A stretch of DNA of 64,000 bases from NCBI GenBank assembly GCA_012521755.1, contig JAAYLV010000001.1, positions 2,014-66,013 of the forward strand. Direction: 5' to 3'. Each line of letters starts with the position of its first letter. Positions within the stretch are counted from its first letter, which is position 1. Both the position numbers and the translations under genes were made by a program. The notes beneath the pieces were generated by a model, which was not told the origin of the DNA, did not search any database, and saw only the letters and a program-made list of their open reading frames with translations. Shown here in pieces: positions 14,843 to 52,849 of the stretch. The DNA is from Bacillota bacterium. GTDB taxonomy: Bacteria; Bacillota; Limnochordia; JAAZLZ01.

Positions 14843-16555
14843 ATGCTAAGGGAACTCCACATACGCAACTACGCCCTTATCGAGCGCCTCGAGTGCCAGT
14901 TCATGCCGGGACTGAACATTGTGACGGGGGAGACTGGCGCCGGCAAATCGATCATCATCGATGCGGTTTGCACCGTCCTCGGCGGGCGGGCGACCGTCGA
15001 CAGCATCAAGGGCGGAGCAGAGGGCGCTTTAGTGGAGGCTTGCTTCGAAGTAGAACCAGATTCGCCCGTTGGTAGACTTTGTACCGAGCTCGGTTATCCA
15101 CCAGAGGATGGACTCCTGATCCTCACCCGGGAAGTGAACCGCAGCGGCAGGCACCGGTGTCGCTTAAATGGCCGGGTGGTTCCCTTGCATATCCTCGCCG
15201 ATGTGGGACAAGCCCTAGTCGATATCCATGGACAACATGATCACCAGTCGCTGTTGCGCGCCGAGACTCACGGGGACTTTCTCGACGCCTTCATTGGCGA
15301 TGAGGCTTTGTCCCTGCGCCGGCGGCTTGAGGCAAGGCTCGTGGAGTACCGGCAAATAGTCGACAGGCTGCATAAGTGGCAAGACATGCTAGCTGGCCGG
15401 GCAAGGGATCGGGAGCTGCTCCTCCATCAAGTGGATGAGATCAGGGGGGCTCGTCTTCAGCCTGGTGAGGATGAAAGACTGGAACAAGAAAGGCGCGTTT
15501 TGCAGAATGCCCACGCCCTTTATGAAGGGGTGATGGGCGCTTACGAGATCTTGTATGGAAGCCAGTTGTCGGCCGCCGGTCTCCTTGGCCAGGGGACGGC
15601 AACCCTGGGAAGTCTAGTCCGGATGGATGAGTCTTTAACCCCACTTTGGGAGAGTCTCCAGTCGAGCCAGATCCTCGTCCAGGAAATCGCCAGGGAGCTT
15701 CGCACCTACGGGGAGGCCATTGAAGCGCGGCCGGGGAGGCTTGAAGAAGTCGAAGAGCGACTGGAGCTAATCAACCATTTGAAGCGAAAGTATGGTCGAA
15801 CCATTGAGGAAATCATCGCCAAAGAGGCGGAGATGGCCGCGGCCCTGGAACTGGAAGAAAAGCAGGACGAAGAGCACAAGGAACTTCAGGCTCGCGCCGA
15901 AACCTTGCGAGGGGAACTGAAAAGATTGGCGGGGGAGCTGTCCGCTCTTCGGCGATCCCATGCGGCGCGCCTGGAAGAGGCGGTTGGGCGGGAGCTTGAG
16001 GAGCTCAATATGCCTCGGGCCCGGTTTCAGGTGGCCTTCTTGGCCAATGAGGGCGGCACCTCCCTGGGCGATGGAGTGCGAATCACTGGGCGAGGGGCCG
16101 AACGCATCGAGTTTCTCATCGCTCCCAACCAGGGGGAAGAACCCAAGCCCCTCATCCGGATCGCTTCCGGCGGTGAGATGTCCCGGATCATGTTGGCGCT
16201 AAAGACTATTCTAGCCAAAGGCGATCACGTCTCCACCTTGATCTTCGATGAGGTCGATGCGGGGATCGGCGGCCATACCGCGGACAAGGTCGCCGTCAGA
16301 TTGGCGAGACTAGCCAGGAATCGACAGGTCCTGGTGGTTACCCATCTAGCCCAGGTAGCCAGCATGGCCGACAGCCATTATCGGGTGCAAAAGGAACAGT
16401 CTGATGGTACGACCAAAGTGAATTTGACCAGACTCGAGAAGGATGAAGCCCTCGAAGAACTGGCCCGGATGCTCGGCGGGAACGAGGTCACTGCCCGACA
16501 GCACGCGCGGGAGCTCTTAAACCGGGCCGGCCGCATCAAACAACTGGCAGGATGA
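14843..16555 (+). CDS. recN: DNA repair protein RecN
   Basis: 570 aa SMC-like protein with Walker A GETGAGKSIIIDA, coiled coil and C-terminal signature. Confidence 0.95.
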   Translation: MLRELHIRNYALIERLECQFMPGLNIVTGETGAGKSIIIDAVCTVLGGRATVDSIKGGAEGALVEACFEVEPDSPVGRLCTELGYPPEDGLLILTREVNRSGRHRCRLNGRVVPLHILADVGQALVDIHGQHDHQSLLRAETHGDFLDAFIGDEALSLRRRLEARLVEYRQIVDRLHKWQDMLAGRARDRELLLHQVDEIRGARLQPGEDERLEQERRVLQNAHALYEGVMGAYEILYGSQLSAAGLLGQGTATLGSLVRMDESLTPLWESLQSSQILVQEIARELRTYGEAIEARPGRLEEVEERLELINHLKRKYGRTIEEIIAKEAEMAAALELEEKQDEEHKELQARAETLRGELKRLAGELSALRRSHAARLEEAVGRELEELNMPRARFQVAFLANEGGTSLGDGVRITGRGAERIEFLIAPNQGEEPKPLIRIASGGEMSRIMLALKTILAKGDHVSTLIFDEVDAGIGGHTADKVAVRLARLARNRQVLVVTHLAQVASMADSHYRVQKEQSDGTTKVNLTRLEKDEALEELARMLGGNEVTARQHARELLNRAGRIKQLAG

Positions 16556-16663: not shown

Positions 16664-17959
16664 ATGGTGCGGCGAAACAGATTTCTTACTTATCTGTGGT
16701 GGGGGCTTCTTATTTGTTTCTTCCTCATCGGCATCCAGGTGCATCTGTTAAATGCCTTGCCTAAACATTTGCGTGTTCTTCCTGGGGACAGCCTGAACCT
16801 TCGCCTGTTCCCGCCTTACACCCTTGTCTCTCCTGCGGAAAAGGACTTCATTCAAATCTCCGAAGGAAATCTAGAAATTGGTCCGACCAGCCCCGATCAG
16901 GCCAGTCTGCTCATCAGCCTGTGGGGAATGCCGGTTCGGGAGATGGTGGTGGAGGTCGTCCCGGAGCTGAAGGTCATGCCGGGGGGACAGGCAATCGGGG
17001 TCTTGTTGGCCCCCGCGGGCTTGATTGTGGTGGATCATATACCTCTTCTCGGCACCGATGGCAAAGAGTACTATCCCGCCCAGGAAGCAGGGATTCGGCA
17101 TGGTGACATCCTGCTGAAATTAAACAATGCGACCATCTACAATCCTGACCAGTTGCGGTTCATGGTCGAGCGATCCGGGGCTTTAGGTCAGGAACTGGAT
17201 GTTGAGCTGCTGCGCAATGGACAGGTGATTCGGACCCGCATCAGGCCGGTTGAGGTCGGCAGAAATGGAGGGCGCAGTCCGAGCTTCCTCTTGGGGCTGT
17301 GGCTGGAGGATCCCGCTGCCGGTGTGGGGACTCTAACCTTCTATGATGAGCGGACAGGGCGGTACGGTGCTCTGGGCCACATGATCACCGATGCGGCTAA
17401 TCGTCGGATTCAGGTTAACCGGGGTCATATAGTCCAAGCTCAGATCTCGGGGGTGCAAACGGGCCTGCGGGGACGACCGGGGGAGAAAATTGGCATCTTC
17501 CAAGATGAACGCGATGTGGTTGGCACCATCGACAAGAACACCCGCTTCGGCATCTTTGGCAAGCTCCACGTCCTACCTGGCAACAACTATTATCGAGAGC
17601 CAATACCAGTTGCTTTGGCCCATCAAGTCAAAAAAGGTCCGGCGGAAATCCTGACAGTGTTGGAAGGCGAAAAGGTGGAGCGCTTCGCTGTGGAGATCAT
17701 CAAAGTCAATAGGCAGCGGCGGCCTGATGATAAGGGGCTTGTCATCCAGATAACTGACAGCCGTCTCCTAGAGCGAACGGGCGGCATCATTCAAGGGATG
17801 AGCGGCAGTCCCATCATTCAAGATGGACGTCTAGTCGGAGCGGTCACCCATGTCTTCATCAGCGATCCAACTAGGGGATTTGGCATCATGGCCGAGTGGA
17901 TGCTATACGAATCCGGCATTGGCGACACGCAGATAGGCAATCCTCCCAGGACAGCTTGA
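16664..17959 (+). CDS. spoIVB: SpoIVB peptidase (S55) with PDZ domain
   Basis: 431 aa with N-terminal TM, PDZ domain and serine peptidase domain (GTLTFYDERTGRYGALGH, ITDSRLLERTGGIIQGMSGSPI). Confidence 0.9.
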   Translation: MVRRNRFLTYLWWGLLICFFLIGIQVHLLNALPKHLRVLPGDSLNLRLFPPYTLVSPAEKDFIQISEGNLEIGPTSPDQASLLISLWGMPVREMVVEVVPELKVMPGGQAIGVLLAPAGLIVVDHIPLLGTDGKEYYPAQEAGIRHGDILLKLNNATIYNPDQLRFMVERSGALGQELDVELLRNGQVIRTRIRPVEVGRNGGRSPSFLLGLWLEDPAAGVGTLTFYDERTGRYGALGHMITDAANRRIQVNRGHIVQAQISGVQTGLRGRPGEKIGIFQDERDVVGTIDKNTRFGIFGKLHVLPGNNYYREPIPVALAHQVKKGPAEILTVLEGEKVERFAVEIIKVNRQRRPDDKGLVIQITDSRLLERTGGIIQGMSGSPIIQDGRLVGAVTHVFISDPTRGFGIMAEWMLYESGIGDTQIGNPPRTA

Positions 17960-18295
17960 CTACTTGTGTTTCTCCCTGCCCGCGGGCTCGCTAAGCCCCA
18001 GGACGTTATCCGCGGGCAAAGTAAAGATGATCCCTTTCCCTGGTTCGTGGAATTTGCCGGCTTCGACCAGCACATCGTAAATGGGACGGTATGCGTCTCG
18101 CGGCGACACAATTAGAATGACTTCTTTAGAGGATTCAATATGTAGATTAAGGAGTTTAGGAGCTTCAAAGACTCCAGTTCCCCGTCCATACAAGATAGTC
18201 CCGCCGAGCAGGCCTGCTTCCTTGGCCTTCTCTACTAGTCCCTGAGCTTTGCCCCGCTCGACGACCGCGATAATCGCTAAGTAATCCATCGACAA
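17960..18295 (-). CDS. P-II-like (GlnB superfamily) small regulatory protein
   Basis: 111 aa with P-II-like topology (GGTILYGRGTG loop). Directly downstream of a DUF1538 membrane protein, a recurrent pairing. Confidence 0.5.
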   Translation of the reverse strand: MSMDYLAIIAVVERGKAQGLVEKAKEAGLLGGTILYGRGTGVFEAPKLLNLHIESSKEVILIVSPRDAYRPIYDVLVEAGKFHEPGKGIIFTLPADNVLGLSEPAGREKHK

Positions 18296-18415
18296 TCCTC
18301 CTAAGTCTTTGCTCGAGCAACCAATATGGGTTGGGAGCCACCGAACCTGGCAGTCATCTCTTTCTTTGTCCGGTCTGGCTCACCACCCCTGTGGTCTGGC
18401 CGGTCCGACTGACAT

Positions 18416-19123
18416 CTACAAGAACCTGCTCAAGATCCCGAGGGACAACACCGACAGGATTGTCCCCATGGATGTCAAGCCAACGATGCCGAATCCAGCG
18501 AGCAACGGGTCAGTGACCTCAAGCATGCTCGCTAATCCTATGGCCAGGGCCATGTTAATCGGGATATTAACCGGCCCGGTAGTGGCGCTGGCACAATCCA
18601 TGGCGATGGCGACGAACTGTTCCGGTGCGAGCCGAATCAAGACCAGGAATAGGATCAGAATCGGCGTGATGATGGTTCTAATTGGAATGTTGTTTAGTAT
18701 CTTCAAGATCCCCATAGCCATGCCCAAACCGAAACCAAAGGCTACAGCGTGGACCAATACATTGTAAGGGATAGCACCTACCGATATTTCTTCGACTTCC
18801 AGTGCCAGAATTCTCAGTGCCGGCTCCACCAAAGTGCCAAAGTAGCCCAGGACAAAAGCAAATAGGGCTATTGCCAGCTTATTGTCGAGGACAACCAAAT
18901 CACGTCCAAGGGAGTCGCTCATGGGCAATAAGCTCATTGACGCCCCCTTGATGAAAAAGTGCAGCCCCAAGATACTCAGGACGATGCCGCCGATGAAGGT
19001 CTTCGGGTTCTCGGGACTATGCTTAAGGAAGAATGTCTTGAAGCCGACCATGAAAAGCGTAATTGGGAGAACGGTCTTGGCTGTTCCCCACAACGGCTTT
19101 AGCTGCTCTAAGAATCCCATCAC
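18416..19123 (-). CDS. DUF1538-family integral membrane protein
   Basis: 235 aa with about 6-7 TM helices; pattern typical of DUF1538 proteins that pair with P-II-like genes. Confidence 0.5.
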   Translation of the reverse strand: MMGFLEQLKPLWGTAKTVLPITLFMVGFKTFFLKHSPENPKTFIGGIVLSILGLHFFIKGASMSLLPMSDSLGRDLVVLDNKLAIALFAFVLGYFGTLVEPALRILALEVEEISVGAIPYNVLVHAVAFGFGLGMAMGILKILNNIPIRTIITPILILFLVLIRLAPEQFVAIAMDCASATTGPVNIPINMALAIGLASMLEVTDPLLAGFGIVGLTSMGTILSVLSLGILSRFL

Positions 19124-19336: not shown

Positions 19337-19987
19337 GTGAAAAAGCCCTTGATCGGAGCATTGGCAGCAGTACTAATCCTTGCGGGAGCAGCTGGAGCGA
19401 CCACCTTGGGCGGTGGCGTGGGTTGGACAAAGGCAACGGCCGAGCATGGGGAAGAGTCAAGCTTGGAAGAACGGGCCTGGGTTTTCGATGGGAACGTCGA
19501 CTTGGGTCTGCTCAGGCTTGGCGGCAGCTACCTGATGCTGATGGATGAGAAAGAAAATCCCCAGGCCGACTACACCATGTACGCCGGCGGCGTTGAATTG
19601 CGACTCCCCTTAGGGCCTCTGCCTTTGAAGGCTTATGTTGGTGGCGGATACACAGGCGAGGACCTGTCCTTTGGGTCGGCTAAGATCGAAGGGGAGGGCT
19701 TCTTTGTCGGCGGACGGGCCTTAGCTGACTTGGACGGCGTCCTTCTCGAGGGCTACTATCAGCACTCGCCTCGCTTTTCGTGGGTTGAGACAACCGATGG
19801 CGGGGAAGTGGAGGGTGAAGCCGTCATGGCCCGGTACGGTGCCAGTTTGCGATTTCCCGTCCTTTGGCCCCTCAACATCGTCATCGGGTACAAAGGCGGC
19901 ACCCTTGAGCCCGGGGATGATTATCAAGGTGAACTGAAGAAGGTCCAGACCAATGTTTTCACCGCGGGAGGCGCCATTTCTTTCTGA
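19337..19987 (+). CDS. Secreted beta-barrel-like protein (OmpW/porin-like; C-terminal ...GGAISF)
   Basis: Signal peptide, then alternating hydrophobic/polar beta-strand dyads (KAYVGGGYTG, NIVIGYKGGT, NVFTAGGAISF) and a C-terminal Phe. Confidence 0.4.
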   Translation: MKKPLIGALAAVLILAGAAGATTLGGGVGWTKATAEHGEESSLEERAWVFDGNVDLGLLRLGGSYLMLMDEKENPQADYTMYAGGVELRLPLGPLPLKAYVGGGYTGEDLSFGSAKIEGEGFFVGGRALADLDGVLLEGYYQHSPRFSWVETTDGGEVEGEAVMARYGASLRFPVLWPLNIVIGYKGGTLEPGDDYQGELKKVQTNVFTAGGAISF

Positions 19988-20251: not shown

Positions 20252-21013
20252 ATGCCGACAAGGTTGCTGGTGGCGGACGATGATCGGGGATTTTGTCAGC
20301 AGATAGCTGAGGCTATTGCCTCCGATCCTAAGTTGGAGCTCCTCGCTATTGTCCATGATGGCAAGAGCGTCTTGGAAGTGCTCCACAGGGAAACGCCGGA
20401 TGTTTTGCTATTAGACCTGGTTATGCCCGAGCTAGATGGAATCGGCGTCCTCGAGGAGATTCAAAGGGATCGTCGAGAGTTGAGGATTCTCGTCATGTCC
20501 GTGTTTGGCCAAGAAGAGATCCTGAGCCGAGTGCTTTCCCTTGGAGCTGACTACTTCATGGTGAAGCCCTTTGATGTCAAGCTGCTTTTGCAGCGAGCCA
20601 AAGAATTGACCCAGGGATCGCGGTTTTATGATGGTCAAGCTTATAATCGTAAGAGCAATCACTTGGAGGCGGAGATCGTTCGGCAGTTGATCCAGTGCGG
20701 CGTACCTGCCCACTATAAGGGCTATGCTTACCTTAAAGAAGGAATCATGCGGGTCATTCAAGACGGGAGCCTGATCAACCGCGTGACCAAGGATCTTTAT
20801 CCGAGCATAGCGCGGGAGTTTAATACCACTGCGGAAAAGGTGGAAAGGGCCATTCGCCACGCGATCGAGACGGCCTACGTACGGGGAAACATCGAGTTTC
20901 TCAACGAAGTCTTTGCCTACACCGTTGACTCCCAAAAGGGCAAACCGACCAATTCTTCCTTTATCGCCACGTTAGCCGACAGAATTCGACTGGGAATTAA
21001 AGTGGCGGAATGA
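20252..21013 (+). CDS. spo0A: Sporulation master regulator Spo0A
   Basis: Receiver domain (LLVADDD..., LLLDLVMPELDG) and the Spo0A-specific C-terminal domain (RVERAIRHAIE..., NSSFIATLADRIRLG). Confidence 0.95.
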   Translation: MPTRLLVADDDRGFCQQIAEAIASDPKLELLAIVHDGKSVLEVLHRETPDVLLLDLVMPELDGIGVLEEIQRDRRELRILVMSVFGQEEILSRVLSLGADYFMVKPFDVKLLLQRAKELTQGSRFYDGQAYNRKSNHLEAEIVRQLIQCGVPAHYKGYAYLKEGIMRVIQDGSLINRVTKDLYPSIAREFNTTAEKVERAIRHAIETAYVRGNIEFLNEVFAYTVDSQKGKPTNSSFIATLADRIRLGIKVAE

Positions 21014-21088
21014 CGGGTGAACCATCGCGGCATACTATCGCTAGAAGGGGCCGGCATGGCCCCTTTAGCGCGTTATGGAGGTGCTTCG

Positions 21089-22210
21089 ATGGCCATCCGG
21101 GGTATTGCCAGGGTGGACAAGAGGACCAAAGGCCTGGTGAAACGTCTCCAGCCTGGGGAGATCGCGGTGATCGCCCATCGGGATATCGACGAGGTGGCTG
21201 CGGAAAGCCTGATCCGCTGTGGAGTCAGGGCCGTCGTCAATGGCGATGAGTCGATCACGGGTCGCTACCCCAACCCTGGTCCCTTGCATCTGTTGCGGGC
21301 AGGCATCCCGGTCTTGGATAAGGTGGGACTCTCGGCCATCGAGGCCATCAAGGATGGCGACAGCGTAGAAATCCGTGACAACCGACTCTTGGTGGGGGGC
21401 CGGGTGGTTGGCCTTGGGCAGATGCTATCCCTAGACATGGTAATGGAAAAGATGGCCATGGGCCGCAGGAATTTGCAGGAAGAGCTGCGACGATTCGCCG
21501 CGAATACCCTCGTTTATGCTTGGAAGGAAAAAGATGCGATCTTAGGGCGGATTCCGCTGCCGCCCATCAAGACTTCTTTGCAGGGAAAGCACGCCCTTAT
21601 TGTCGTCAGAGGGGCGCGGGCAAAGGAGGACCTAATAGCTATTCGTTCGTACATCGACGAGGTTGAGCCCGTCCTCATTGGGGTGGATGGGGGCTCCGAC
21701 ATCTTGGTGGAACTTGGCTATCGGCCCCATTTGATCGTAGGTGACATGGATAGCGTCAGCGACACCACCCTAAGGAAAGGAGCGGAGCTGGTGGTCCATG
21801 CTTATCCCGATGGGCGGGCTCCGGGGCTGCGCCGCATACAAGAACAAGGACTTAAGGCCCACGTACTGCCCCTTCCCGGCACAAGCGAAGATGTCGCGAT
21901 GCTCCTTGCTTACGAAAAAGGAGCTGCTTTAATCGTTACGGTGGGGAGCCATTCGAATATGATCGACTTCCTCGAGAAAGGGCGGCGGGGGATGGCCAGC
22001 ACTCTCCTGGTAAGACTGAAGGTGGGGGAAATCTTAGTGGATGCTAAGGGAGTCAGCAAGCTTTACCGGGGACGGCCCCGCATTGGATATGTCTTCTCCC
22101 TTGGCTTGGCAGCTTGTGTTCCGGTGATGATCCTCCTGTTGCTATCGGATTCTCTGCGCCAAGTTGGGCGCTTCCTGCTTCTGGTGCTGAGGGTAATGCT
22201 TGCCAGGTAG
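21089..22210 (+). CDS. steA: SteA-like putative cytokinetic ring protein (thiamine-pyrophosphokinase-like domain); longest ORF from 21017
   Basis: N-terminal ARVDKRTKGLVKRLQPGEIAVIAHRDID, TPK-like HLIVGDMDSVSD, C-terminal membrane-associated helix. ATG 21089 has a GGAGGTG RBS. Confidence 0.55.
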   Translation: MAIRGIARVDKRTKGLVKRLQPGEIAVIAHRDIDEVAAESLIRCGVRAVVNGDESITGRYPNPGPLHLLRAGIPVLDKVGLSAIEAIKDGDSVEIRDNRLLVGGRVVGLGQMLSLDMVMEKMAMGRRNLQEELRRFAANTLVYAWKEKDAILGRIPLPPIKTSLQGKHALIVVRGARAKEDLIAIRSYIDEVEPVLIGVDGGSDILVELGYRPHLIVGDMDSVSDTTLRKGAELVVHAYPDGRAPGLRRIQEQGLKAHVLPLPGTSEDVAMLLAYEKGAALIVTVGSHSNMIDFLEKGRRGMASTLLVRLKVGEILVDAKGVSKLYRGRPRIGYVFSLGLAACVPVMILLLLSDSLRQVGRFLLLVLRVMLAR

Positions 22211-22222
22211 AGGAGGGGGGCC

Positions 22223-22957
22223 TTGCTAATTGATCTACGCTACCATTTGGGGTCACTAGTGGCGGTCTTCTTAGCCTTAGGCATCGGCATTCTGATCGGC
22301 TACAGCCTATTTGGCCAGGAAGGCTTTCTGGATAAGCAGCAGCAACAGCTTGTGGACGAACTGGAAGTCCGTTTCCTTCGGCTAAAGGACGAACGGGAAC
22401 AACTGGAGGCCAATCTGGCTAGGCTGGCCCAGGAACTAGAACGAGACCGGGATCTGGTTCGGTCCATCCAGCCCCTTCTCATTAAGGACAGGTTGGCAGG
22501 GAGAAATATACTGCTGGTGGTGACTGGAACCGCGGCAGATAAAGACTGCATCGCACAGGTTGCGGCCGGCCTTCGCGAGGCGGGGGCCAACGTTACTGAA
22601 GTCATCCACCCTCGAAAAGAGAAGGGGGAAGAAAGCATCGTGGACTTGGTTGCCCCTGGCACAGATCCCCAAGCTCGTCAATCAGTTGATGGGGTGGTGT
22701 TGATAGGTGGAGCCTTGGCGGGGGAGGGGACCTTTCAAGAAATCGATCGGCCCCTCATCGAAGCCCTGTTTCCGAGGCGGATACTAGTAGTTGGCGCTGA
22801 GCCTTTCGGCGCCCCAGTTTCCTACGCAAAGGACTATGAGCGAATGTCCATTCCTATGGTAGATAACGTCGATACCCCGGCGGGACTAATCAGCCTGGTG
22901 TTTTTATTATCGGCCGGAGAAAACTCCGAGGCGGCAGCGGCAATGGGGGTGGGCTAA
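22223..22957 (+). CDS. steB: SteB-like membrane-anchored protein (copper-transporter family annotation in databases)
   Basis: N-terminal TM, long coiled coil, C-terminal alpha/beta domain. Immediately downstream of steA-like. Confidence 0.5.
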   Translation: MLIDLRYHLGSLVAVFLALGIGILIGYSLFGQEGFLDKQQQQLVDELEVRFLRLKDEREQLEANLARLAQELERDRDLVRSIQPLLIKDRLAGRNILLVVTGTAADKDCIAQVAAGLREAGANVTEVIHPRKEKGEESIVDLVAPGTDPQARQSVDGVVLIGGALAGEGTFQEIDRPLIEALFPRRILVVGAEPFGAPVSYAKDYERMSIPMVDNVDTPAGLISLVFLLSAGENSEAAAAMGVG

Positions 22958-22960
22958 GGA

Positions 22961-23629
22961 TTGGTTTCGGTGCTGATGCCGGCCCTCAATGAAGAAGCTA
23001 GGATCGAGGCATCGGTGTCTGCAGCCCTCGCCATCCCCCAGGTCGATGAGGTGATCGTGATCGATGACGGTTCCGTCGACGAAACGGGGGACCTGGCAGC
23101 AAAGGCGGGGGCCGAGGTCATTCGTCTCCAGCGGAATCTGGGGAAGGGAGGGGCCTTGAATGCCGGTTTGAGGCGAGCGCGGGGCGATGTCATCTTGACC
23201 TTGGATGCCGATTTGGGCGTCAGTGCTTTAGAAGGGGCCAAGCTCCTGGCTCCCGTCCTTGCTGGACAGGCCCACATGACGGTGGGGGTCTTTCCCCGAT
23301 TGGGGAAGGGAGGCGGCTTTGGCCTCGCCAAGGGCCTGGCAAAACGGGGGATCTTGCTGTTGACCGGCCAGCAGCTGCGCGAACCCCTATCGGGTCAACG
23401 GTGCCTACTGCGGGAGATATTGGACCGATGCAACGGATTTGCCGCGGGGTTTGGTGCAGAGGTGGGGCTGACCATCGATGCTCTGCGGCTGGGATACCGG
23501 GTGTTGGAGGTGGAAGTAAACATGGACCATGCGCGCACTGGCCGGAATCTGACCGGCTTTCGCCACCGGGGCCGGCAGTTCTGGCATATCTTCTTGGCTT
23601 TGGCCGCCCGCGTTGGTGATCGGATGTGA
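22961..23629 (+). CDS. Family 2 glycosyltransferase (dolichyl/polyprenyl-phosphate sugar synthase-like)
   Basis: SVLMPALNEE...VIVIDDGSVD..., TLDADLG. Confidence 0.75.
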   Translation: MVSVLMPALNEEARIEASVSAALAIPQVDEVIVIDDGSVDETGDLAAKAGAEVIRLQRNLGKGGALNAGLRRARGDVILTLDADLGVSALEGAKLLAPVLAGQAHMTVGVFPRLGKGGGFGLAKGLAKRGILLLTGQQLREPLSGQRCLLREILDRCNGFAAGFGAEVGLTIDALRLGYRVLEVEVNMDHARTGRNLTGFRHRGRQFWHIFLALAARVGDRM

Positions 23630-24426
23630 TCCTGGCGGTCATGCTCCTTGGGGCCCTTGGGACGCTTTGGCCTCTAAGAGGCCTTGCGGAATTGGCCCGG
23701 GAAGGATTTCTTCGCCGGGCCAACTTTCGCGGTGAGCTCGTCCCGACGGGGATGGGAGTCTCCTTCTTGCTTGGCTCCTCCCTTGGTCTCGTCGGGGGCC
23801 TTTGGCTGGGCGTCTATGGAATCCAGGATGCGCTCCTCTTAACCACTGTGTTGTTTGGCTTTGGCTTTTTGGGCCTAGTCGACGATCTTTGGGGCGATCA
23901 TGCCCATCGCGGCCTTGGGGGCCATCTTCGCGTCGCCTTGCAGGGGAAGGTCAGCACGGGGCTTTTGAAAGCCGTTTACGGTGGCCTTTTAGCCCTAGGA
24001 GCAGCGCTGTTCAGCGGGGGTAAAGAAGGGCTCTTGGTTAACGCCTTGATCATCGCCTTAACGACCAATACCCTAAACCTCTTGGACCTCAGGCCTGGAC
24101 GCTGCGGCAAGGCCTTCCTGCTAGGATCTCTACTCCTCTTTTGCATCGGGGAGACTAGCGCCTTGAGGCAGCTGCTGCCCGTCATCGGCGGAGTCCTCGC
24201 CTACCTCCCGTGGGATATGCGGCGAGTTGTGATGATGGGCGATGCCGGGGCTAATCCCCTAGGAGCCTTGCTGGGCATTGGCATCATCGGTCTTGCAGGG
24301 CCCATGCGGGCCTTTAGCCTCCTGCTGTTGATTGGCATTCACCTCTACAGCGAGAAGTATTCTCTCTCCCGCTTGATTGATGATAATCCGGTATTGCGTT
24401 TCTTGGACAAGCTGGGGTGCGATTAG
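23626..24426 (+). CDS. Short MraY/WecA-family (glycosyltransferase family 4) polyprenyl-phosphate sugar-phosphotransferase-like membrane protein
   Basis: Motifs GLVDDLWG, NTLNLLDLRPG and MGDAGANPLGA. Only 266 aa, shorter than MraY/WecA. Confidence 0.55.
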   Translation: MILAVMLLGALGTLWPLRGLAELAREGFLRRANFRGELVPTGMGVSFLLGSSLGLVGGLWLGVYGIQDALLLTTVLFGFGFLGLVDDLWGDHAHRGLGGHLRVALQGKVSTGLLKAVYGGLLALGAALFSGGKEGLLVNALIIALTTNTLNLLDLRPGRCGKAFLLGSLLLFCIGETSALRQLLPVIGGVLAYLPWDMRRVVMMGDAGANPLGALLGIGIIGLAGPMRAFSLLLLIGIHLYSEKYSLSRLIDDNPVLRFLDKLGCD

Positions 24427-24476: not shown

Positions 24477-25067
24477 TTGCACCGGTTGGTCCTCTTGTTG
24501 CTGTCCATCGGGCTCTTTACCTCGCCGGCAGCTGCGGATGTTGAAGTGTACACCGTCAAGCCGGGGGACACGATCTACGCAGTGGCTCGGATACTGCAGG
24601 TCCATCCCAAGGAAATCATCGCCCTAAACAGCCTCGATGATCCTGATCTGATCGGTGTGGGCATGCAGCTGAAGGTGCCTTCGGGAGCACCGGAGCGCCC
24701 GCCAAGGGAGGTCACCCCCGAGGAGTTGGAATTGATGGCTAAAGTGATCTATGCTGAGGCCCAGGGCGAGCCGGAACTAGGTCAATTAGCGGTGGGAAGG
24801 GTCATCGTCAACCGGCTCCGCGACCCTAGTTTTCCCGATACGATCACTGACGTCATCTACCAGCCGGGCCAATTCCTTCCGGTCGAATCGGGGCTGCCCG
24901 AGACAGTCCCGGCGAAGTTTGTGGAGTTGGCCAAGAGGGCCTTTTCCGAAGAAGACCCAACCTATGGCGCCCTGTTTTTCTACAACCCCCACAAGACCAC
25001 CAGACCCGATTTTTGGGCTACCAGGACCAAGCTGGTCACCATCGGCAATCACGTCTTTGCCCGCTAG
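24477..25067 (+). CDS. LysM-domain cell wall hydrolase, SleB-like (Hydrolase_2)
   Basis: Signal peptide, LysM (YTVKPGDTIYAVARIL), then SleB-type domain (VIYAEAQGEP...GRVIVNRL...PGQF...FFYNP). Confidence 0.8.
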   Translation: MHRLVLLLLSIGLFTSPAAADVEVYTVKPGDTIYAVARILQVHPKEIIALNSLDDPDLIGVGMQLKVPSGAPERPPREVTPEELELMAKVIYAEAQGEPELGQLAVGRVIVNRLRDPSFPDTITDVIYQPGQFLPVESGLPETVPAKFVELAKRAFSEEDPTYGALFFYNPHKTTRPDFWATRTKLVTIGNHVFAR

Positions 25068-25110
25068 CATACCATCAAACCTCCTAGCATAGGAATGAGG
25101 AGAAAGCCCT

Positions 25111-25914
25111 GTGCAGGGGGTGTTTTCATTGGTCATCGTCATCAGGACTCGCCTACAGCTGCTGGCTGGTTTCCTGGCCCTGGCCGTCCTAGTCAGTTTG
25201 CTGCAGTTCGTCGGCGGTCAGGCGGTGAAGACAGTCAGCGGGCTCCTTGCCCGTCAGGTCCCTATCTACCAGGTGGAAGTGCCCGACAAGAAAGTCGCCA
25301 TATCATTCGACGCCATGTGGGGTACAGAGCGAACTGACCGGCTGCTGGCAGTGCTGCGGCGCCATGGTGTGAAGACTACTTTTTTCCTGGCCGGTTATTG
25401 GCTGCAAAAAAACCCTGAGTATGTGCGGAAGATCGCCGCTGAAGGCCATGAGATAGGCAATCACAGCTACACCCACCCCCATATGGCCAACCTCAATGCC
25501 AGTCAAATTCGCGAAGAGCTGGAAAAGACCCACGCCTTGATTAAGCAATTGACCAATCAGGACAGCTTCTTGTTTCGCCCTCCCTTTGGCGAGTACAACG
25601 ATCGGGTGATCGAAGTGGCAGCGGAGTTGGGGTATTATACGATCCAATGGTCCCTGGATTCCCTGGACTGGAAAAACGTCAGTAAAGATGACATTGTCCG
25701 TCGGATTATGGAGAGAGTCAAACCGGGGGACATTATCCTCTTTCACAATGATGGCCTCCATACGGCAGCTGCCGTCGATGAGATTCTCACGCGACTGCTC
25801 AGCCAAGGGTATCAAGTGGTCCCCGTCTCCCAGCTGATTTACAAAGAGGGATATTACATTGAGAAACACTCGGGCACCCAGCGGCCCAGCAAGGCCGGGC
25901 GAACACGGCAGTAG
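25111..25914 (+). CDS. Polysaccharide deacetylase (NodB homology), PdaA/PdaB-like
   Basis: N-terminal TM; NodB motifs FDAMWG, TFFLAGYW, HEIGNHSYTH, LFRPPFG. Confidence 0.8.
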   Translation: MQGVFSLVIVIRTRLQLLAGFLALAVLVSLLQFVGGQAVKTVSGLLARQVPIYQVEVPDKKVAISFDAMWGTERTDRLLAVLRRHGVKTTFFLAGYWLQKNPEYVRKIAAEGHEIGNHSYTHPHMANLNASQIREELEKTHALIKQLTNQDSFLFRPPFGEYNDRVIEVAAELGYYTIQWSLDSLDWKNVSKDDIVRRIMERVKPGDIILFHNDGLHTAAAVDEILTRLLSQGYQVVPVSQLIYKEGYYIEKHSGTQRPSKAGRTRQ

Positions 25915-25931
25915 AGCAAGGAGGTGAGAGG

Positions 25932-26912
25932 ATGTTTTCCCTTGTCATCACCCGGAGGATGATCCGTCGGGGTGGGTTCATTATCGGCTTGATCCTCCTT
26001 TGGGCCGTTGGGCCTGGGCTTTGGCAGCTGGGCTGCCGCTACGTGTGCGGTGTACGCCCGGGCGTTACCCTCGAGGGTCGGCCCATCGGGGGACTGCTGG
26101 AAGATGAGCTGTATCGGGAGGTAGCGATGATCGCTGAGGAGTACGTTACTCTTCCGCAGGATGCCTACTATGATGAGCATACGGGGGAGCTTCATGATGA
26201 AGTGGTGGGGACCTGGGTCGATGTGGGAGCCACCGTTGCCAAGATCTTGTCGGCCTCCCCGGGGGAGCGGGTTCAGCTGGTCGTCCAGGATATCCTGCCC
26301 ACCATCAGGCGCAGTCTTTTCGAACCTGTCTACCGCGGCAACCCGGAACGCCCCTACGCCAGCTTTGCGGTGAACGTTGACTGGGGGGAGGAAATCTTGC
26401 CGGCGATGCTTGATGTGCTCGACAAATACCAGGTAGTCGCGACTTTTTTCTTAACGGGTCGCTGGGCGCAGGCGAACCCGGCCCTGGCCCGGATGATTGC
26501 CAGCCGGGGGCATGAGATAGGCAACCACGGCTACTGGCATGCCCATCCTAGCCGCCTGTCGGCCAAGGATCTAGAAAAGCTCATCGTCGACAATGAAGTC
26601 CTTCTCGATGAATTGACGGGCCAATCCAACAAGCTTTTTGCCCCGCCCTACGGCGAATTCAATGAACGGGTTCTCGCCACCGCGGCTTCCCTTGGTTACA
26701 GGACGATTTTATGGTCCCTCGATACCCGCGACTGGCAGGATCCCTCACCCCAGGAGATCATCGACCGCATAGTGCCCAAGGCAGAAAACGGCAGCATTAT
26801 CCTTATGCATCCGAAGGCCAATACTGTCAAAGCTTTGCCCAAGTTGATTGAGGGGCTGCGGGCGAAAAGTCTCCGACTAGTCCCCGTCGGGGAGCTCCTT
26901 TGGCATGACTAG
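25932..26912 (+). CDS. Polysaccharide deacetylase family sporulation protein (YlxY-like)
   Basis: N-terminal TM plus extra domain; NodB motifs ATFFLTGRW, HEIGNHGYWH. Sits where ylxY lies upstream of mlpA in Bacillus. Confidence 0.75.
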   Translation: MFSLVITRRMIRRGGFIIGLILLWAVGPGLWQLGCRYVCGVRPGVTLEGRPIGGLLEDELYREVAMIAEEYVTLPQDAYYDEHTGELHDEVVGTWVDVGATVAKILSASPGERVQLVVQDILPTIRRSLFEPVYRGNPERPYASFAVNVDWGEEILPAMLDVLDKYQVVATFFLTGRWAQANPALARMIASRGHEIGNHGYWHAHPSRLSAKDLEKLIVDNEVLLDELTGQSNKLFAPPYGEFNERVLATAASLGYRTILWSLDTRDWQDPSPQEIIDRIVPKAENGSIILMHPKANTVKALPKLIEGLRAKSLRLVPVGELLWHD

Positions 26913-28192
26913 GGCCGCAGACTTCGTCCGATGATGCTCCAGGCGGCCGGGTCTTCAAAGCCGAGCCGCCAGAGGGCAATTCCCGCTAAGTCGTACTTGT
27001 TGACCAGGTACAGTTTATGGGACAGGCTGTAGCGGTCTTCGAAATAGACGACGTGGCGATTGCCCAGATCCGTATAGCTAAAATGGGGGACCTTGTGGAC
27101 GGCATCCCAGTTGACTGGCACGTTTTTCGTCTCGGCGAGGCTCGCGGCTCCTCGCTGGGTTATGGCCTTGCCCGTCCACTGACCGGGGGCAACCTCCTCC
27201 CAGTCATACCCGTACAGGGCGATTCCCAGGTAGAGCTTGCTTCGGGGGACATGCTTGAGGGCATAGGTGATGACATCTTCGACCCAGCCAATGGACGCAA
27301 TGGGGCCAGGGGAGCCATCCCGGTAGTGCTCATCGTAGGTCATCAGCTGAAGCCCGTCCACTATTCTTCCCAGCGTGTTATAGTCATAGGCACCTGTCCA
27401 ACTAGCCTTTGCCGTTTTATCCGTCTTGGCGGGGACGGACATGGTCACGAGCAGTCCCTCAGGCTGCAAGCGATCGGCCAGCTCTTGCATGAAGGCGTTC
27501 AAATTTTCCCGTTGCTGGTGGGGGACGTTTTCGAAATCGATGTTGACGCCGCTGTAACCCCAACGCCTGAGCATCTGATGGATGCTCTCTACGGCCTGCC
27601 GCCGGGCCTGAGGGTTTGCCAGAAGCATTCCTACCATGTCGCCGTCGAACTTGTCCCCATGGTAATTATGAATGAGGGCTAGGGTCTGTTTCCCCCGGCT
27701 GCCTGCCAGCTCCAGCACCTTGGCGGGCGTTTTCCCTTGGAGGTTCCCTTCTCCATCGAGCATATAGGCCCAGGGGGCAACGGCCGTCCAATGGTCATTA
27801 GCAACCAGAGATTCATAGCCGGTTTGGCGCAGGTCATCGACGTAGTAGCCGATGACTTGCCGGGGCCGATGGGAGACGGAGCTCCTCATGGGATCGCCCT
27901 TTAGCAGCCAGCCTGCCACCCATCCGACCTCCCGCGTGCTCGTTTGCACCTGGTACCAGCCGTCTTGCTCAGCAATTACCTGGAGTTCTTCACCTTTGGC
28001 GAGGGTCTTCACTGGGGCGTAGGCGCCCCCGGGACCTTCCCGCAGGACTACTTGTTCCCCTCCCACCAGGGCACTTTCACCTACTTCCACCGGGGACGCA
28101 AGTTCGGTTGTGGATTGTCTAGTTCCGAAAAAGCCCGTTAGCGAGAGGAAGATAGTGAGTAGATAAATTAACAAGGCCTGCACAGGTTTCAC
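26909..28192 (-). CDS. SH3b-domain glycoside hydrolase family 18 (YaaH/YdhD-like spore peptidoglycan hydrolase)
   Basis: Signal peptide, SH3b (VVLREGPGGAYAPVKTLAKGEELQVI...GWYQV), GH18 catalytic domain (GVNIDFE). Confidence 0.75.
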   Translation of the reverse strand: MKPVQALLIYLLTIFLSLTGFFGTRQSTTELASPVEVGESALVGGEQVVLREGPGGAYAPVKTLAKGEELQVIAEQDGWYQVQTSTREVGWVAGWLLKGDPMRSSVSHRPRQVIGYYVDDLRQTGYESLVANDHWTAVAPWAYMLDGEGNLQGKTPAKVLELAGSRGKQTLALIHNYHGDKFDGDMVGMLLANPQARRQAVESIHQMLRRWGYSGVNIDFENVPHQQRENLNAFMQELADRLQPEGLLVTMSVPAKTDKTAKASWTGAYDYNTLGRIVDGLQLMTYDEHYRDGSPGPIASIGWVEDVITYALKHVPRSKLYLGIALYGYDWEEVAPGQWTGKAITQRGAASLAETKNVPVNWDAVHKVPHFSYTDLGNRHVVYFEDRYSLSHKLYLVNKYDLAGIALWRLGFEDPAAWSIIGRSLRP

Positions 28193-52584: not shown

Positions 52585-52828
52585 AGGCAAAGGCGATGAA
52601 AAGGAGAGTAGTCTTAGGTTTGGCTGCAGCGAGCCGGGGAGGGTGGAAGCCCGGTGGGAAAGCCTAGGATGAAGATCACCTTGGAGCTGCGGTCTGAAGT
52701 GTCGCGGACATGGGTAAGATCCGTCGGTTGCGGCCGTTATCCGCTTAAGAGCGCACACAACTGTGTGCAGCGGGGTGGTACCGCGGGAGTCACTCTCTCG
52801 TCCCGGAAGGGGCGGGATTTTTTTATGG
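52585..52828 (+). promoter_or_regulatory. T-box riboswitch leader (Ile specifier AUC at 52675-52677) with intrinsic terminator, upstream of ileS
   Basis: Promoter TTGGTTATAATAC. Stem I GA motif gcgatgaaaaggagagtag, specifier gaagAUCAcc, T-box sequence cagcGGGGTGGTACCGCGggag, terminator cccggaaggggcggg followed by attttttt. Confidence 0.8.
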
Positions 52829-52849
52829 GGACTTGAAGGAGGAGGAGTC

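Follow-up and report, generated by a model that had tools for sequence, protein, structure and literature searches.

In mycobacteria and corynebacteria, the SteAB complex resides at the septum, where it positions the NlpC/P60 hydrolase RipA. The two genes are adjacent and translationally coupled in Mycobacteriales (C. glutamicum Cg1603/Cg1604; M. tuberculosis Rv1697/Rv1698-MctB), with recN nearby, and both transferase genes considered below are presumably missing from their steAB locus, judging from the gene order Rv1696–Rv1699. SteAB of Mycobacteriales thus works without transferases at its locus, so that SteAB as such can do without them. By analogy, the FtsEX-hydrolase systems (FtsEX-RipC, FtsEX-CwlO/PcsB) also place an extracytoplasmic peptidoglycan hydrolase under a cytoplasmic nucleotide-binding subunit of a transmembrane complex, although SteA lies outside the ABC ATPases and binds no ATP. 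For transferases, the nearest analogies are TagO-TagA (wall teichoic acid) and WecA-WbbL (mycobacterial arabinogalactan linker), in which an initiating polyprenyl-phosphate transferase of the PNPT fold comes first and the polyprenyl-PP-sugar is then the substrate of a second, cytoplasmic glycosyltransferase. GDP or UDP stabilizes corynebacterial SteA, whereas ADP and nucleoside triphosphates do not, and its pocket has been predicted to bind carbohydrate (PMC12977500). The same 2026 mBio paper states that steAB lies immediately downstream of spo0A in Clostridia, and suggests a role of this neighbourhood in sporulation (PMC12977500).

The four-gene unit downstream of spo0A

The window analysed here is a stretch of 64,000 nucleotides from an endospore-forming Bacillota lineage near Limnochordia. 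A first-pass annotation had placed a SteA–SteB pair, a GT2 glycosyltransferase and a transferase-like gene directly after spo0A, with overlapping or abutting stops and starts, and had regarded the arrangement as an undescribed system. The position of steAB after spo0A had already been published, as cited above, whereas the coupling to transferases is not mentioned in the literature searched, PMC12977500 included. The features are as follows.

14843–16555, + strand: recN, context only (Pfam domains on L001, an identical contig)
16664–17959, + strand: spoIVB, context only (TIGR02860, 415 bits; Pfam domains on L001, an identical contig)
20252–21013, + strand: spo0A, upstream neighbour, context only (TIGR02875, 280 bits against a cut-off of 200; PF08769 and PF00072)
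21046–21064, + strand: core of the spo0A–steA intergenic hairpin, AGGGGCC-ggcat-GGCCCCT, inside a longer stem
21089–22210, + strand: steA, 373 aa (NF040608, PF12555, PF04263; match to 9HMY)
22223–22957, + strand: steB (MctB family), 244 aa (PF11382; matches to MtSteB/CgSteB structures)
22961–23629, + strand: GT2, soluble GT-A glycosyltransferase, 222 aa (PF00535; GpgS/DPMS/ArnC matches)
23626–24426, + strand: short PNPT-fold membrane protein, 266 aa (PF00953; MraY/GPT fold match)

The four open reading frames were found on the + strand as first annotated, the steA frame being open from 21017, and the junctions are as described: the TAG stop of steA (22208–22210) overlaps an AGGAGG located 7 nt 5' of the steB TTG at 22223, the TAA of steB (22955–22957) is followed after 3 nt by the GT2 TTG at 22961, and the TGA of GT2 (23627–23629) overlaps the GTG start of the PNPT gene at 23626. 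In translation the four genes thus form one coupled unit, and spo0A ends at 21013, directly before it.

The start of steA had been set at GTG 21017, and this is the one coordinate that was moved. The true start is almost certainly ATG 21089, because a GGAGG site lies at 21077–21081, gene callers on five independent contigs picked this ATG, and the resulting N-terminus agrees with that of all SteA orthologs (MxIKGIARVDKRTK); translation from GTG 21017 would have to cross the stable intergenic hairpin, and this start was rejected. The 75-nt intergenic RNA has a folding energy of −31.9 kcal/mol (z = −2.05). The hairpin is followed by UUU only and then by the GGAGG site, and it was not called in a terminator scan; it is not a canonical intrinsic terminator, and may serve for attenuation, for stabilization or as a terminator of low strength. 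The spo0A–steA interval yielded no sigma-70-like promoter.

The encoded proteins and their relatives

SteA, proposed at first as a SteA-like protein with a TPK-like domain, matches NF040608 with 490 bits (cut-off 150) as well as PF12555 and PF04263, and its residues 3–327 match the solved SteA structure 9HMY (E 1.4e-66). It is predicted to consist of a dimeric core in the cytoplasm, which holds a TPK-like nucleotide pocket, and one C-terminal transmembrane (TM) helix at around residues 335–353 (hydropathy), with homology to the SteA of Mycobacteriales across both core and anchor. Identity across Clostridia is 55–65%, and the pocket motif, GDMDS, does not vary between phyla. The assignment of the second gene to a SteB-like membrane coiled-coil protein also held: SteB matches PF11382 with E 6.7e-29, covering profile positions 1–117 of 306 only, and the profile of its orthologs matches the MtSteB structures 9M9Z and 9HLE (E 4e-19 and 6e-18) and CgSteB 8AU6 (E 4e-15). 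It shares with the SteB of the SteAB-RipA system an N-terminal TM helix (residues 12–30), a coiled coil and the alpha/beta core family, but the extracytoplasmic core is reduced, with an internal deletion and without the C-terminal GxYGxKxTA tail present in orthologs, and a RipA-like coiled-coil NlpC/P60 partner was not identified. By these profile matches, both proteins are genuine homologs of their counterparts in actinobacterial SteAB.

GT2 belongs to PF00535 (E 1e-26), carries a DAD motif (D82–D84) and invariant H190, H202 and R203, and lacks a TM segment; its orthologs have 220–235 aa and 50–59% identity across phyla. Although it had been described as similar to polyprenyl-phosphate sugar synthases, its closest solved relative is GpgS (E 3e-16 with the single sequence, 2e-23 with a profile; ~31% identity), with DPMS (6e-19) and ArnC (2e-16) also matching. 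Its AF2 model (pLDDT 91.5) returned GpgS and MpgS at the top of a Foldseek search (TM 0.76–0.82), followed by ArnC and GtrB (TM 0.68–0.78). Sequence and model thus point to GpgS-type soluble GT-A enzymes as the best full-length relatives and to polyprenyl-phosphate GT2s as the second best, with scores close together, and the acceptor may be of either type; the GT2 assignment stands and the closest type has changed. All scores against the NCBIfam equivalogs were under the cut-off, for example 79 against 262 for GpgS and 82 against 325 for AglJ. The GT-A fold and DxD motif are common to GT2, to the GT81 glucosyl- and mannosyl-3-phosphoglycerate synthases (GpgS/MpgS) and to the polyprenyl-phosphate GT2s (DPMS, ArnC, GtrB, AglJ), as are PLSG..R and GfGvE motifs to GT2 and its GpgS and polyprenyl-phosphate relatives. 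However, with only 222 aa, GT2 has neither the C-terminal extension of GpgS nor the helices that ArnC, GtrB and DPMS use for membrane spanning and at the interface, and unlike all of these it has a PNPT as its partner, encoded separately or in a fusion.

The 266-aa protein had been called a truncated MraY/WecA-like transferase. The three transferase motifs (DD, NxxNxxD and GD) are indeed present, but truncation was rejected: the protein is a full-length member of a discrete, minimal nine-TM family of the MraY/GPT fold, which comprises 1,835 clusters at 50% identity (E <= 1e-30). It matches PF00953 with 36 bits (cut-off 27) and gave no match in an NCBIfam search, scoring under the cut-off of every PNPT model, including the named WecA, TagO and MraY families. 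Against the PDB, the family profile matches MraY only (~E 1e-6; the alignment covers residues 31–294 of the E. coli enzyme), and a Foldseek search with the AF2 model (pLDDT 93.3, pTM 0.91) returned, within the fold shared by MraY, WecA/TagO and eukaryotic GPT/DPAGT1, only MraY and human GPT (TM 0.57–0.68, query-normalized). Nine TM helices and two short cytoplasmic C-terminal helices are predicted. The N-terminus is predicted to be outside, as in MraY and GPT, and this is supported by the natural GT2–PNPT fusion P0469 (527 aa, GT2 half 53% identical to the window GT2), which contains one extra TM helix that keeps this topology.

Among 258 family members, conservation is 100% at D86, D87, D154, D206 and at 13 other positions, including N148, N151, P157, R159, N210 and D261; D86, D87 and D206 align with D115, D116 and D267 of E. 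coli MraY. Catalytic competence is thus likely from residue conservation. Compared with the MraY/WecA/GPT type, the family is ~90–100 residues shorter, lacks TM9b, the loop-E HHH and TM10 of MraY, and has additional invariant residues (G96, H100, K115, D197, E243, S246 and D261). The DD, NxxNxxD and (M)GD motifs align with those of MraY. The family signature, NxxNxxDLRPGR, has DLRPGR where the MraY type has DGxDG, with Pro at the second Asp of this uridine-pocket loop. Because TM10 and the HHH loop are absent and the pocket loop contains Pro, the donor may be unusual, or the protein may not be a transferase.

Conservation and ancestral gene order

Ordered steA–steB–GT2–shortPNPT, with median gaps of ~25 nt, was found in 64 of 67 named species-level genomes having a SteA like that of the window and enough downstream sequence, the remaining three lacking steB or PNPT; this sample and the actinobacterial one below were each drawn from the 80 best matches to a query SteA and are biased accordingly. 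The arrangement is conserved far beyond chance. Carriers include Clostridia, Tissierellia, Halanaerobiales, Limnochordia, Tumebacillus and Armatimonadota, and the four genes stay together when their flanks differ: the unit is intact after uvrC in Chthonomonas, among other neighbours in Tumebacillus and Thermoanaerobacterium, and behind a PAP2 gene in a Bacilli MAG. The genes 3' of the unit are not conserved. Diverse PNPT look-ups were linked to steAB in seven of nine cases, and one PNPT subclade was found without steAB.

In actinobacterial-type loci, steA–steB–shortPNPT is present without GT2 in all 35 eligible cases; in 32/33 the start of a MurJ-family gene (PF03023, E 2e-41) lies no more than ~100 nt beyond PNPT, and a GT-B gene (PF00534, PF13439) follows it in 21/28. 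Thus, unlike Mycobacteriales, the window and most non-mycobacterial carriers have a dedicated short PNPT after steAB, plus either GT2 or a MurJ-like gene with GT-B. Three Actinomycetota-type loci read steA–steB–GT2–PNPT–pyrG, with recN directly 5' in L081 and L086 and NADK in L090.

The wider locus is an ancient synteny block, NADK–argR–recN–[spoIVB–spo0A]–steA. The ancestral order is recN–steA, and endospore formers carry spoIVB–spo0A in between. Since recN directly precedes steA wherever spoIVB–spo0A is absent, as in Armatimonadota, Peptostreptococcus canis and actinobacterial loci, the adjacency of spo0A and steA is inherited gene order and gives no evidence for a sporulation role.

A proposed lipid-linked glycan module coupled to SteAB

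We give about an even chance to the reading that steA–steB–GT2–shortPNPT is an ancient conserved envelope/cell-division operon in which a lipid-linked glycan module is coupled to SteAB, a link that we infer from guilt by association. The short PNPT would move a phospho-sugar from a nucleotide sugar onto polyprenyl phosphate at the cytoplasmic face, and GT2, docked on PNPT, would add a second sugar, a step that the GT-B enzyme would perform in Actinobacteria. The glycan would then be flipped outward, in Actinobacteria by the MurJ-like protein. SteA would sense this pathway through its conserved pocket, which in the corynebacterial protein accepts UDP/GDP and not ATP. What binds there would be either the nucleotide set free or the diphospho-sugar head of the lipid-borne intermediate, so that the module possibly supplies the UDP/GDP-type ligand of SteA; unlike in FtsEX, enzymes encoded in the operon itself would provide the input, as a nucleotide or a lipid-sugar metabolite. 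The SteA–SteB transmembrane bundle would pass the signal to extracytoplasmic SteB, which would control a wall hydrolase. In favour of this reading are the coupled junctions, the conserved order of the unit, the linkage of PNPT to steAB in both types of locus, the MurJ-family and GT-B genes of the actinobacterial loci, the invariant PNPT residues, the nucleotide preference of corynebacterial SteA together with the invariant pocket motif, and the P0469 fusion as a physical link of GT2 and PNPT. Against it stand the SteAB of Mycobacteriales, which works without transferases at the locus, the Firmicute unit, which contains no flippase, polymerase or ligase, the three of 67 incomplete loci, the bias of both locus samples, the PNPT subclade without steAB, the structural losses of the short PNPT, the close scores of the two types of GT2 relative, and the reduced SteB with no RipA-like partner identified.

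A rather unlikely alternative is that PNPT and GT2 independently start a glycolipid or secondary cell-wall polymer by making its linkage unit and are merely syntenic with steAB, which would not be coupled to them in regulation. PNPT with a second glycosyltransferase and the actinobacterial MurJ-like flippase is a classic start of a lipid-linked glycan, resembling the linkage-unit pairs also in the flippase of the actinobacterial variant, and both the steAB of Mycobacteriales without transferases and the PNPT subclade without steAB would fit. However, of 102 eligible loci from different phyla, 99 keep steB–GT2–PNPT or steB–PNPT ordered and tightly spaced although the flanks have changed, the unit is not accompanied by a polymerase, an LCP ligase or other genes of such a pathway, PNPT falls outside all named WecA, TagO and MraY families, and SteA has an orphan UDP/GDP-type pocket. 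The window pair also differs from TagO-TagA and WecA-WbbL in using a short PNPT with GT2 or GT-B, not a GT26 enzyme or a rhamnosyltransferase, and in lying inside a division-regulator operon without attached polymer-synthesis genes.

A role of the unit in asymmetric septation, engulfment or cortex/coat glycan synthesis is improbable. Spo0A is the immediate upstream neighbour in 57/70 loci with readable upstream sequence, the negative promoter search before steA would agree with such a role, and spore-cortex-type genes (LysM/SleB-like, PdaB-like, YlxY-like and GH18) follow the unit in the window, but downstream genes vary between loci and a stable hairpin separates spo0A from steA. The complete unit also occurs without spoIVB–spo0A at the locus in Chthonomonas, other Armatimonadota, Peptostreptococcus canis and Actinomycetota MAGs, all from lineages that are not known to sporulate; as recN or NADK directly precedes steA in such loci, the adjacency is explained by insertion of spoIVB–spo0A into an older recN–steA block. 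About as improbable is a non-catalytic PNPT that binds polyprenyl phosphate as a scaffold or sensor and anchors the soluble GT2, in this case a polyprenyl-phosphate sugar synthase, to the membrane, comparable to the membrane partner of mycobacterial Ppm1. The losses in PNPT, a GT2 related to DPMS and ArnC with no membrane segment, and a fusion showing that the two act as one unit would suit it, but invariance of the three catalytic Asp equivalents and ~14 polar or Gly cytoplasmic-loop residues is unexpected for an anchor, and PNPT is kept with steAB in the actinobacterial variant without GT2. The coupled operon suggests a lipid-linked sugar pathway as an input to the control of septal wall cleavage.

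Organization of the unit and its setting

The four open reading frames proposed in the first-pass annotation are present, with junctions as described there, and only the start of steA was moved.

up to 21013, plus strand: spo0A (TIGR02875, 280 bits)
21089–22210, plus strand: steA, ATG start, TAG stop at 22208–22210
22223–22957, plus strand: steB, TTG start
22961–23629, plus strand: GT2, a GT-A glycosyltransferase gene, TTG start
23626–24426, plus strand: short PNPT, encoding a 266-residue PF00953 protein, GTG start

The steA stop codon overlaps an AGGAGG site ahead of steB, which begins after a spacing of 12 nt, and the TGA of GT2 overlaps the GTG of the short PNPT gene at 23626. The gene called steA was retained, whereas its proposed GTG start at 21017 was dropped in favour of ATG 21089, which is preceded at 7 nt by a GGAGG site, was picked by gene-calling software on each of five independent contigs of metagenomic origin with this locus and agrees with the N-terminus of SteA orthologs; moreover, the 75 nt between spo0A and steA hold a stable hairpin (−31.9 kcal/mol, z = −2.05), which the reading frame from GTG 21017 would cross. 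A scan for promoters and terminators gave counts at background and nothing convincing that separates the four genes; the matches inside the unit were weak only (one promoter-like and three short terminator-like), with candidates at the following positions.

22485–22512: weak promoter/terminator-scan candidate
23566–23585: weak promoter/terminator-scan candidate
23748–23763: weak promoter/terminator-scan candidate

No RNA element was found by the Rfam scan in or adjoining the unit. The unit belongs to an uncultured lineage of Bacillota, the closest named relative of which is a Limnochordia MAG (65% identity in SteA and 49% in the short PNPT). Directly 3′ of the unit, at 24477–28192, lies a set of spore-cortex-type wall genes that is confined to the lineage of the window and does not accompany the unit elsewhere.

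24477–25067: LysM and SleB-like hydrolase, the first gene 3′ of the unit
25111–25914: PdaB-like deacetylase
25932–26912: YlxY-like deacetylase
26909–28192, minus strand: SH3 and GH18 protein

On the other side, a minus-strand DUF1538/P-II-like pair (17960–19123) is followed by a plus-strand gene (19337–19987) whose 216-residue product begins with a signal-peptide-like segment and matches Porin_4 weakly (E = 0.005); together they split the usual spoIVB–spo0A adjacency, in the lineage of the window only, and a β-barrel protein, if real, would be notable for a Limnochordia-like organism. The co-oriented block to which the unit belongs also includes, about 11 kb upstream of the four genes, an OLE (Ornate Large Extremophilic) RNA of full length (RF01071, 9508–10136, plus strand, 454 bits), followed by a 274-residue open reading frame (likely oapA), dxs-like and FtsJ/TlyA-like genes, NADK, argR and recN. 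A T-box leader (RF00230, 52587–52808, plus strand, 106 bits) overlaps the annotated start of a 945-residue open reading frame (52763–55600), presumably an aminoacyl-tRNA synthetase.

The four products

The SteA and SteB assignments made at first reading were borne out by profile searches. SteA matched NCBIfam NF040608 (putative cytokinetic ring protein) with 490.6 bits against a cut-off of 150, over profile positions 1–367 of 369, and its residues 3–327 match the solved SteA dimer 9HMY (E = 1.4e-66). The GDMDS motif of the TPK-like pocket is invariant, the PF04263 score is 31 bits (threshold 30.7), and a single C-terminal transmembrane anchor is indicated by PF12555 (E = 1.4e-9) and by a hydropathy peak at residues 335–353; identity across Clostridia is 55–65%. 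SteB matched PF11382 (MctB) with 102 bits against a gathering threshold of 25.6 (E = 7e-29), over profile positions 1–117 of 306 only, a stretch that covers the transmembrane segment, the coiled coil and the first part of the core. A hydropathy peak at residues 12–30 marks the N-terminal transmembrane segment, and residues 35–85 match only coiled-coil chains in the PDB. A profile of 21 SteB orthologs matches the cores of MtSteB (9M9Z, 9HLE) and CgSteB (8AU6) with E values of 4e-19 to 4e-15, whereas the SteB of the window alone gave no PDB match to this extracytoplasmic α/β core. With 244 residues, it is 40–60 residues shorter than its orthologs; its extracytoplasmic core carries an internal deletion, and the C-terminal GxYGxKxTAxxLxP tail that they conserve is missing. 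The part of SteB that in M. tuberculosis binds RipA, its NlpC/P60 wall hydrolase partner, is therefore possibly changed in this copy, and none of the genes adjoining the unit looked RipA-like.

The 266-residue transferase had been described as carrying three catalytic motifs while being a truncated form of MraY/WecA. The PF00953 membership (36.2 bits, gathering threshold 27), the motifs and the shorter length were confirmed, whereas the truncation was not. At E ≤ 0.01 it matched no NCBIfam family (MraY, WecA, TagO, WbpL and others). A 32-sequence family profile found MraY as its sole PDB match (E of about 1e-6), covering E. coli MraY from residue 31 to about residue 294 of 360, up to TM9a. The topology was checked with an AlphaFold2 model (pLDDT 93, pTM 0.91), in which nine transmembrane helices and two short C-terminal helices are predicted, rather than ten or eleven, and in which loop E (HHH/HxHH) and the final transmembrane helix are missing. 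The only significant Foldseek matches to this model were MraY and human GPT (query-normalized TM scores of 0.57–0.68), all others being at or below 0.22.

The catalytic Asp set is complete, with DD at the end of TM3, GD in TM8 and NxxNxxD in loop C; in the alignment, D86, D87 and D206 correspond to D115, D116 and D267 of E. coli MraY. Among 258 family members, D86, D87, G96, H100, K115, N148, N151, D154, P157, R159, G205, D206, G208, N210, G213, G217 and D261 are 100% invariant. Loop C differs in its continuation, which is NxxNxxDLRPGR in the short PNPT and NxxNxxDGxDG in MraY. An exhaustive search with the family profile gave 1,835 clusters at 50% identity with E ≤ 1e-30, nearly all of 260–300 residues, and at E ≤ 1e-3 only 4,814 proteins among 1.84 billion representatives were matched, so that the family is well separated from canonical PNPTs. 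A truncated or pseudogenized MraY was ruled out by the discreteness of the family, its uniform length and its invariant active-site residues. Judged from sequence and the predicted model, the short PNPT family forms a minimal, discrete lineage within the PNPT superfamily rather than a cut-down MraY/WecA, and its predicted activity is phospho-sugar transfer to polyprenyl phosphate.

The third product had been called a polyprenyl-phosphate-type GT2, of which the PF00535 GT-A domain with a DxD motif stands, whereas an equivalog match and lipid-binding C-terminal helices were not found. It is a soluble protein of 222 residues in which D82-A-D84 is invariant, and its orthologs across phyla have 220–235 residues and 50–59% identity. 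It has no hydrophobic segment and is without the C-terminal interface or transmembrane helices of the DPMS, GtrB, ArnC or AglJ type. Among solved structures, GpgS ranks first in the sequence search (E = 3e-16), the profile search (2e-23) and the fold comparison (TM score 0.76–0.82, at about 31% identity), and DPMS (6e-19), ArnC and GtrB come next. Every NCBIfam equivalog score is below its cut-off (AglJ, 82 bits versus 325; ArnC, 42 versus 529; PpgS, 48 versus 370; the GpgS model of GT81, NF010496, 79 versus 262), and the acceptor therefore cannot be assigned. The profile alignment with GpgS ends at position 180, short of the invariant H190, and the position of the Tyr in the GpgS SGEY motif is an invariant Arg in the GT2 family. 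A firm label of either GpgS type or polyprenyl-phosphate type was dropped, since DPMS and ArnC come close behind GpgS and the aligned region does not reach the diagnostic His. The metagenomic protein P0469 (527 residues) is a natural fusion of GT2 and short PNPT, the only one among the best 150 PNPT family representatives; its GT2 half is 53% identical to that of the window, and one extra transmembrane helix between the halves keeps GT2 cytoplasmic and the PNPT N-out.

Conservation and gene neighbourhoods

A SteA-anchored scan with one genome per species gave 583 relatives, from which the best 80 loci were taken and scored with HMMs built from the window and the first-round loci; 67 of these 80 were eligible, their sequence extending 2.9 kb or more past the 3′ end of steA. 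The order steA–steB–GT2–short PNPT, the conservation of which in relatives had been raised as a check, was found in 64 of the 67, with median gaps of around 25 nt, a fraction that, like those of the actinobacterial-type set (also a best-80 sample), describes the neighbourhood of the query and not an unbiased census. The carriers comprise Syntrophomonadaceae, Peptococcaceae, Thermincola, Thermoanaerobacterales, Tissierellia, Peptostreptococcaceae, Halanaerobiales, Dethiobacteria, Limnochordia, Tumebacillus and Armatimonadota. The exceptions are two Clostridia MAG loci, L016 (45–2685) and L046 (8001–10624), in which steA is followed by GT2 and PNPT at gaps of about 24–40 nt without steB, and L047, in which steA–steB–GT2 has no PNPT within 8 kb.

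No MurJ-like gene lies within about 8 kb in these Firmicute-type loci. A conserved fifth gene was considered and rejected: DUF3866 follows in only 31 of 66 loci and an M20 peptidase in 16 of 66, and the LysM/SleB-like gene of the window is lineage-specific. The window has no DUF3866 gene; in the loci that have one (around 357 residues; directly 3′ of the short PNPT at 7818–8891 in L007 and in 30 others), its product may be a further partner restricted to certain lineages. In a single Bacilli MAG locus (L093, 606–4472), a gene of the PAP2 family, which includes undecaprenyl-pyrophosphate phosphatases, lies immediately upstream of the four genes, an adjacency that fits the polyprenyl-phosphate theme. 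Some MAG labels conflict with gene content (L025 and L089): a 'Solirubrobacterales' contig carries spoIVB–spo0A and a 'Janthinobacterium lividum' contig carries an actinobacterial-type recN–steA–steB–PNPT order. Binning contamination is thus likely, and organism names in the survey need care.

A metagenome scan anchored on actinobacterial-type SteA gave 35 eligible loci in its best-80 sample. Within this sample, steB and the short PNPT are present in 35 of 35 and GT2 in none of the 35, a MurJ-family gene (PF03023, E = 2e-41) follows the PNPT within about 100 nt in 32 of 33, and a GT-B glycosyltransferase comes next in 21 of 28. The order in these loci (L094–L173; for example L138, L126 and L158) is recN–steA–steB–short PNPT–MurJ-like–GT-B, with pyrG further on, and 12 of them also carry a multi-transmembrane protein of around 600 residues with no Pfam match. 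A further glycosyltransferase and a flippase-like protein accompany the short PNPT, a combination characteristic of pathways for lipid-linked glycans. Outside Mycobacteriales, steAB is in these two best-80 samples almost always found with a putative dedicated phospho-sugar transferase and a second glycosyltransferase, together with a flippase-like gene in Actinobacteria, and the short PNPT is the most persistent partner of SteAB.

When the anchor was the short PNPT, seven of nine diverse look-ups adjoined steAB, and the two exceptions form one subclade, located after an Mrp/ParA-type ATPase gene. In L091 (6001–6852) and L092 (6001–6858), a divergent short PNPT (283–285 residues) lies away from steAB, overlapping the ATPase stop codon in L091, and converges on genes for an NlpC/P60–SH3 hydrolase and an FHA-domain protein, which ties the family to a RipA-type wall hydrolase a second time and independently.

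Proposed role of the module

Work in C. glutamicum defined SteAB (PMC6705760), and its structures were characterized in M. tuberculosis, where it was recently found to control the main cell-separation hydrolase (PMC12977500). The latter study describes the system as 'largely restricted to Actinobacteria', reports steAB immediately after spo0A in a subset of Bacillota, mainly Clostridia, and suggests a role in sporulation. It also describes a conserved TPK/CstII-like pocket in SteA, predicted to bind carbohydrate, reports that CgSteA is stabilized by GDP or UDP and not by ADP or triphosphate nucleotides, and notes that the identity of the ligand has yet to be established (PMC12977500). The word glycosyltransferase is absent from both PMC6705760 and PMC12977500. 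Literature searches on SteA with spo0A, on COG4825/PF12555 and on surveys of polytopic phosphoglycosyl transferases returned nothing on the association or on a short PNPT clade, and a search on C. difficile locus tags 3′ of spo0A returned nothing relevant. The first-pass view that this is not a described system therefore needs dividing: steAB after spo0A was already published (PMC12977500), whereas the coupling to transferases was not found in the literature. Neither the SteAB–PNPT(–GT2) module nor the minimal PNPT family appears to have been described before.

The coupled operon, the cross-phylum conservation, the predicted PNPT fold with its invariant catalytic residues, the GT2–PNPT fusion and the MurJ-like/GT-B association are established, and it is very likely that the four genes form a genuine functional module that has been conserved. 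As for how it might work, the short PNPT would make a polyprenyl-diphospho-sugar on the cytoplasmic face, which GT2, or the GT-B enzyme, would extend, and the extended lipid-linked product would be flipped across the membrane. The SteA pocket may read the pathway, either through UDP/UMP or through the diphospho-sugar head group, and would signal through the transmembrane bundle to SteB, which would control a wall hydrolase. This coupling of the transferase pathway to SteA is put forward tentatively, as a proposal with somewhat less than an even chance of being correct.

Three other explanations have to be set against it. A sporulation-specific role would agree with the position of spo0A, which is directly upstream of steA in 57 of 70 informative loci (best 80 of 583). 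However, recN directly precedes steA where spoIVB–spo0A is missing (the Armatimonadota loci L068 and L069, L078 from Peptostreptococcus canis, the Actinomycetota MAG loci L081 and L086, L089, L009 from Phytoactinopolyspora and most actinobacterial-type loci), so that the adjacency to spo0A is best taken as synteny and not as a sign of a sporulation function. The order is recN–steA–steB–GT2–PNPT–pyrG in L081 and L086 and NADK–steA–steB–GT2–PNPT–pyrG–...–xerD in L090, and in Chthonomonas the unit follows uvrC. The pair spoIVB–spo0A is best read as sitting inside an older recN–steA block. The M. tuberculosis order, which we take to be recN (Rv1696), steA (Rv1697), steB (Rv1698) and pyrG (Rv1699), resembles this block after loss of the transferases, a comparison that draws on the analogous loci L009, L081, L086 and L090. 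This flank order is not stated in PMC6705760 or PMC12943576.

The transferases might alternatively constitute an independent glycopolymer-initiation pathway that is only syntenic with steAB; the subclade of short PNPTs located elsewhere would suit such independence, and the retention of the short PNPT beside steAB in both types of locus, with different companions, argues for a closer relation. The short PNPT could also be a non-catalytic scaffold, with which the missing loop E and final helix are compatible, and against which stands the full invariance of its catalytic Asp residues. The coupling to SteA can also be read more broadly, with SteAB as the sensor and effector arm of an unrecognized ancestral glycan pathway of Terrabacteria. 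A new minimal class of PNPT with nine transmembrane helices would start a lipid-linked glycan, which GT2 would extend in Firmicutes and Armatimonadota, whereas Actinobacteria would use GT-B for extension and the MurJ-like protein for flipping; the lipid-diphospho-glycan, or the UDP/UMP released, would be the ligand sought for SteA and would gate the hydrolysis of septal peptidoglycan; and Mycobacteriales would be derived, with the dedicated enzymes lost and SteA rewired to another UDP/GDP metabolite. That all of these parts hold jointly seems unlikely.

In conclusion, this analysis defines a large, uncharacterized, minimal branch of the MraY/WecA superfamily, the fold of which is a validated antibiotic target, and corrects the tempting inference from the position of steAB beside spo0A to a function in sporulation. 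The question of the SteA ligand becomes concrete, namely which nucleotide sugar is used by the short PNPT and whether that reaction yields a molecule, be it product or by-product, to which SteA binds, and the conserved module together with its PNPT family offers a testable lead on the SteAB system.
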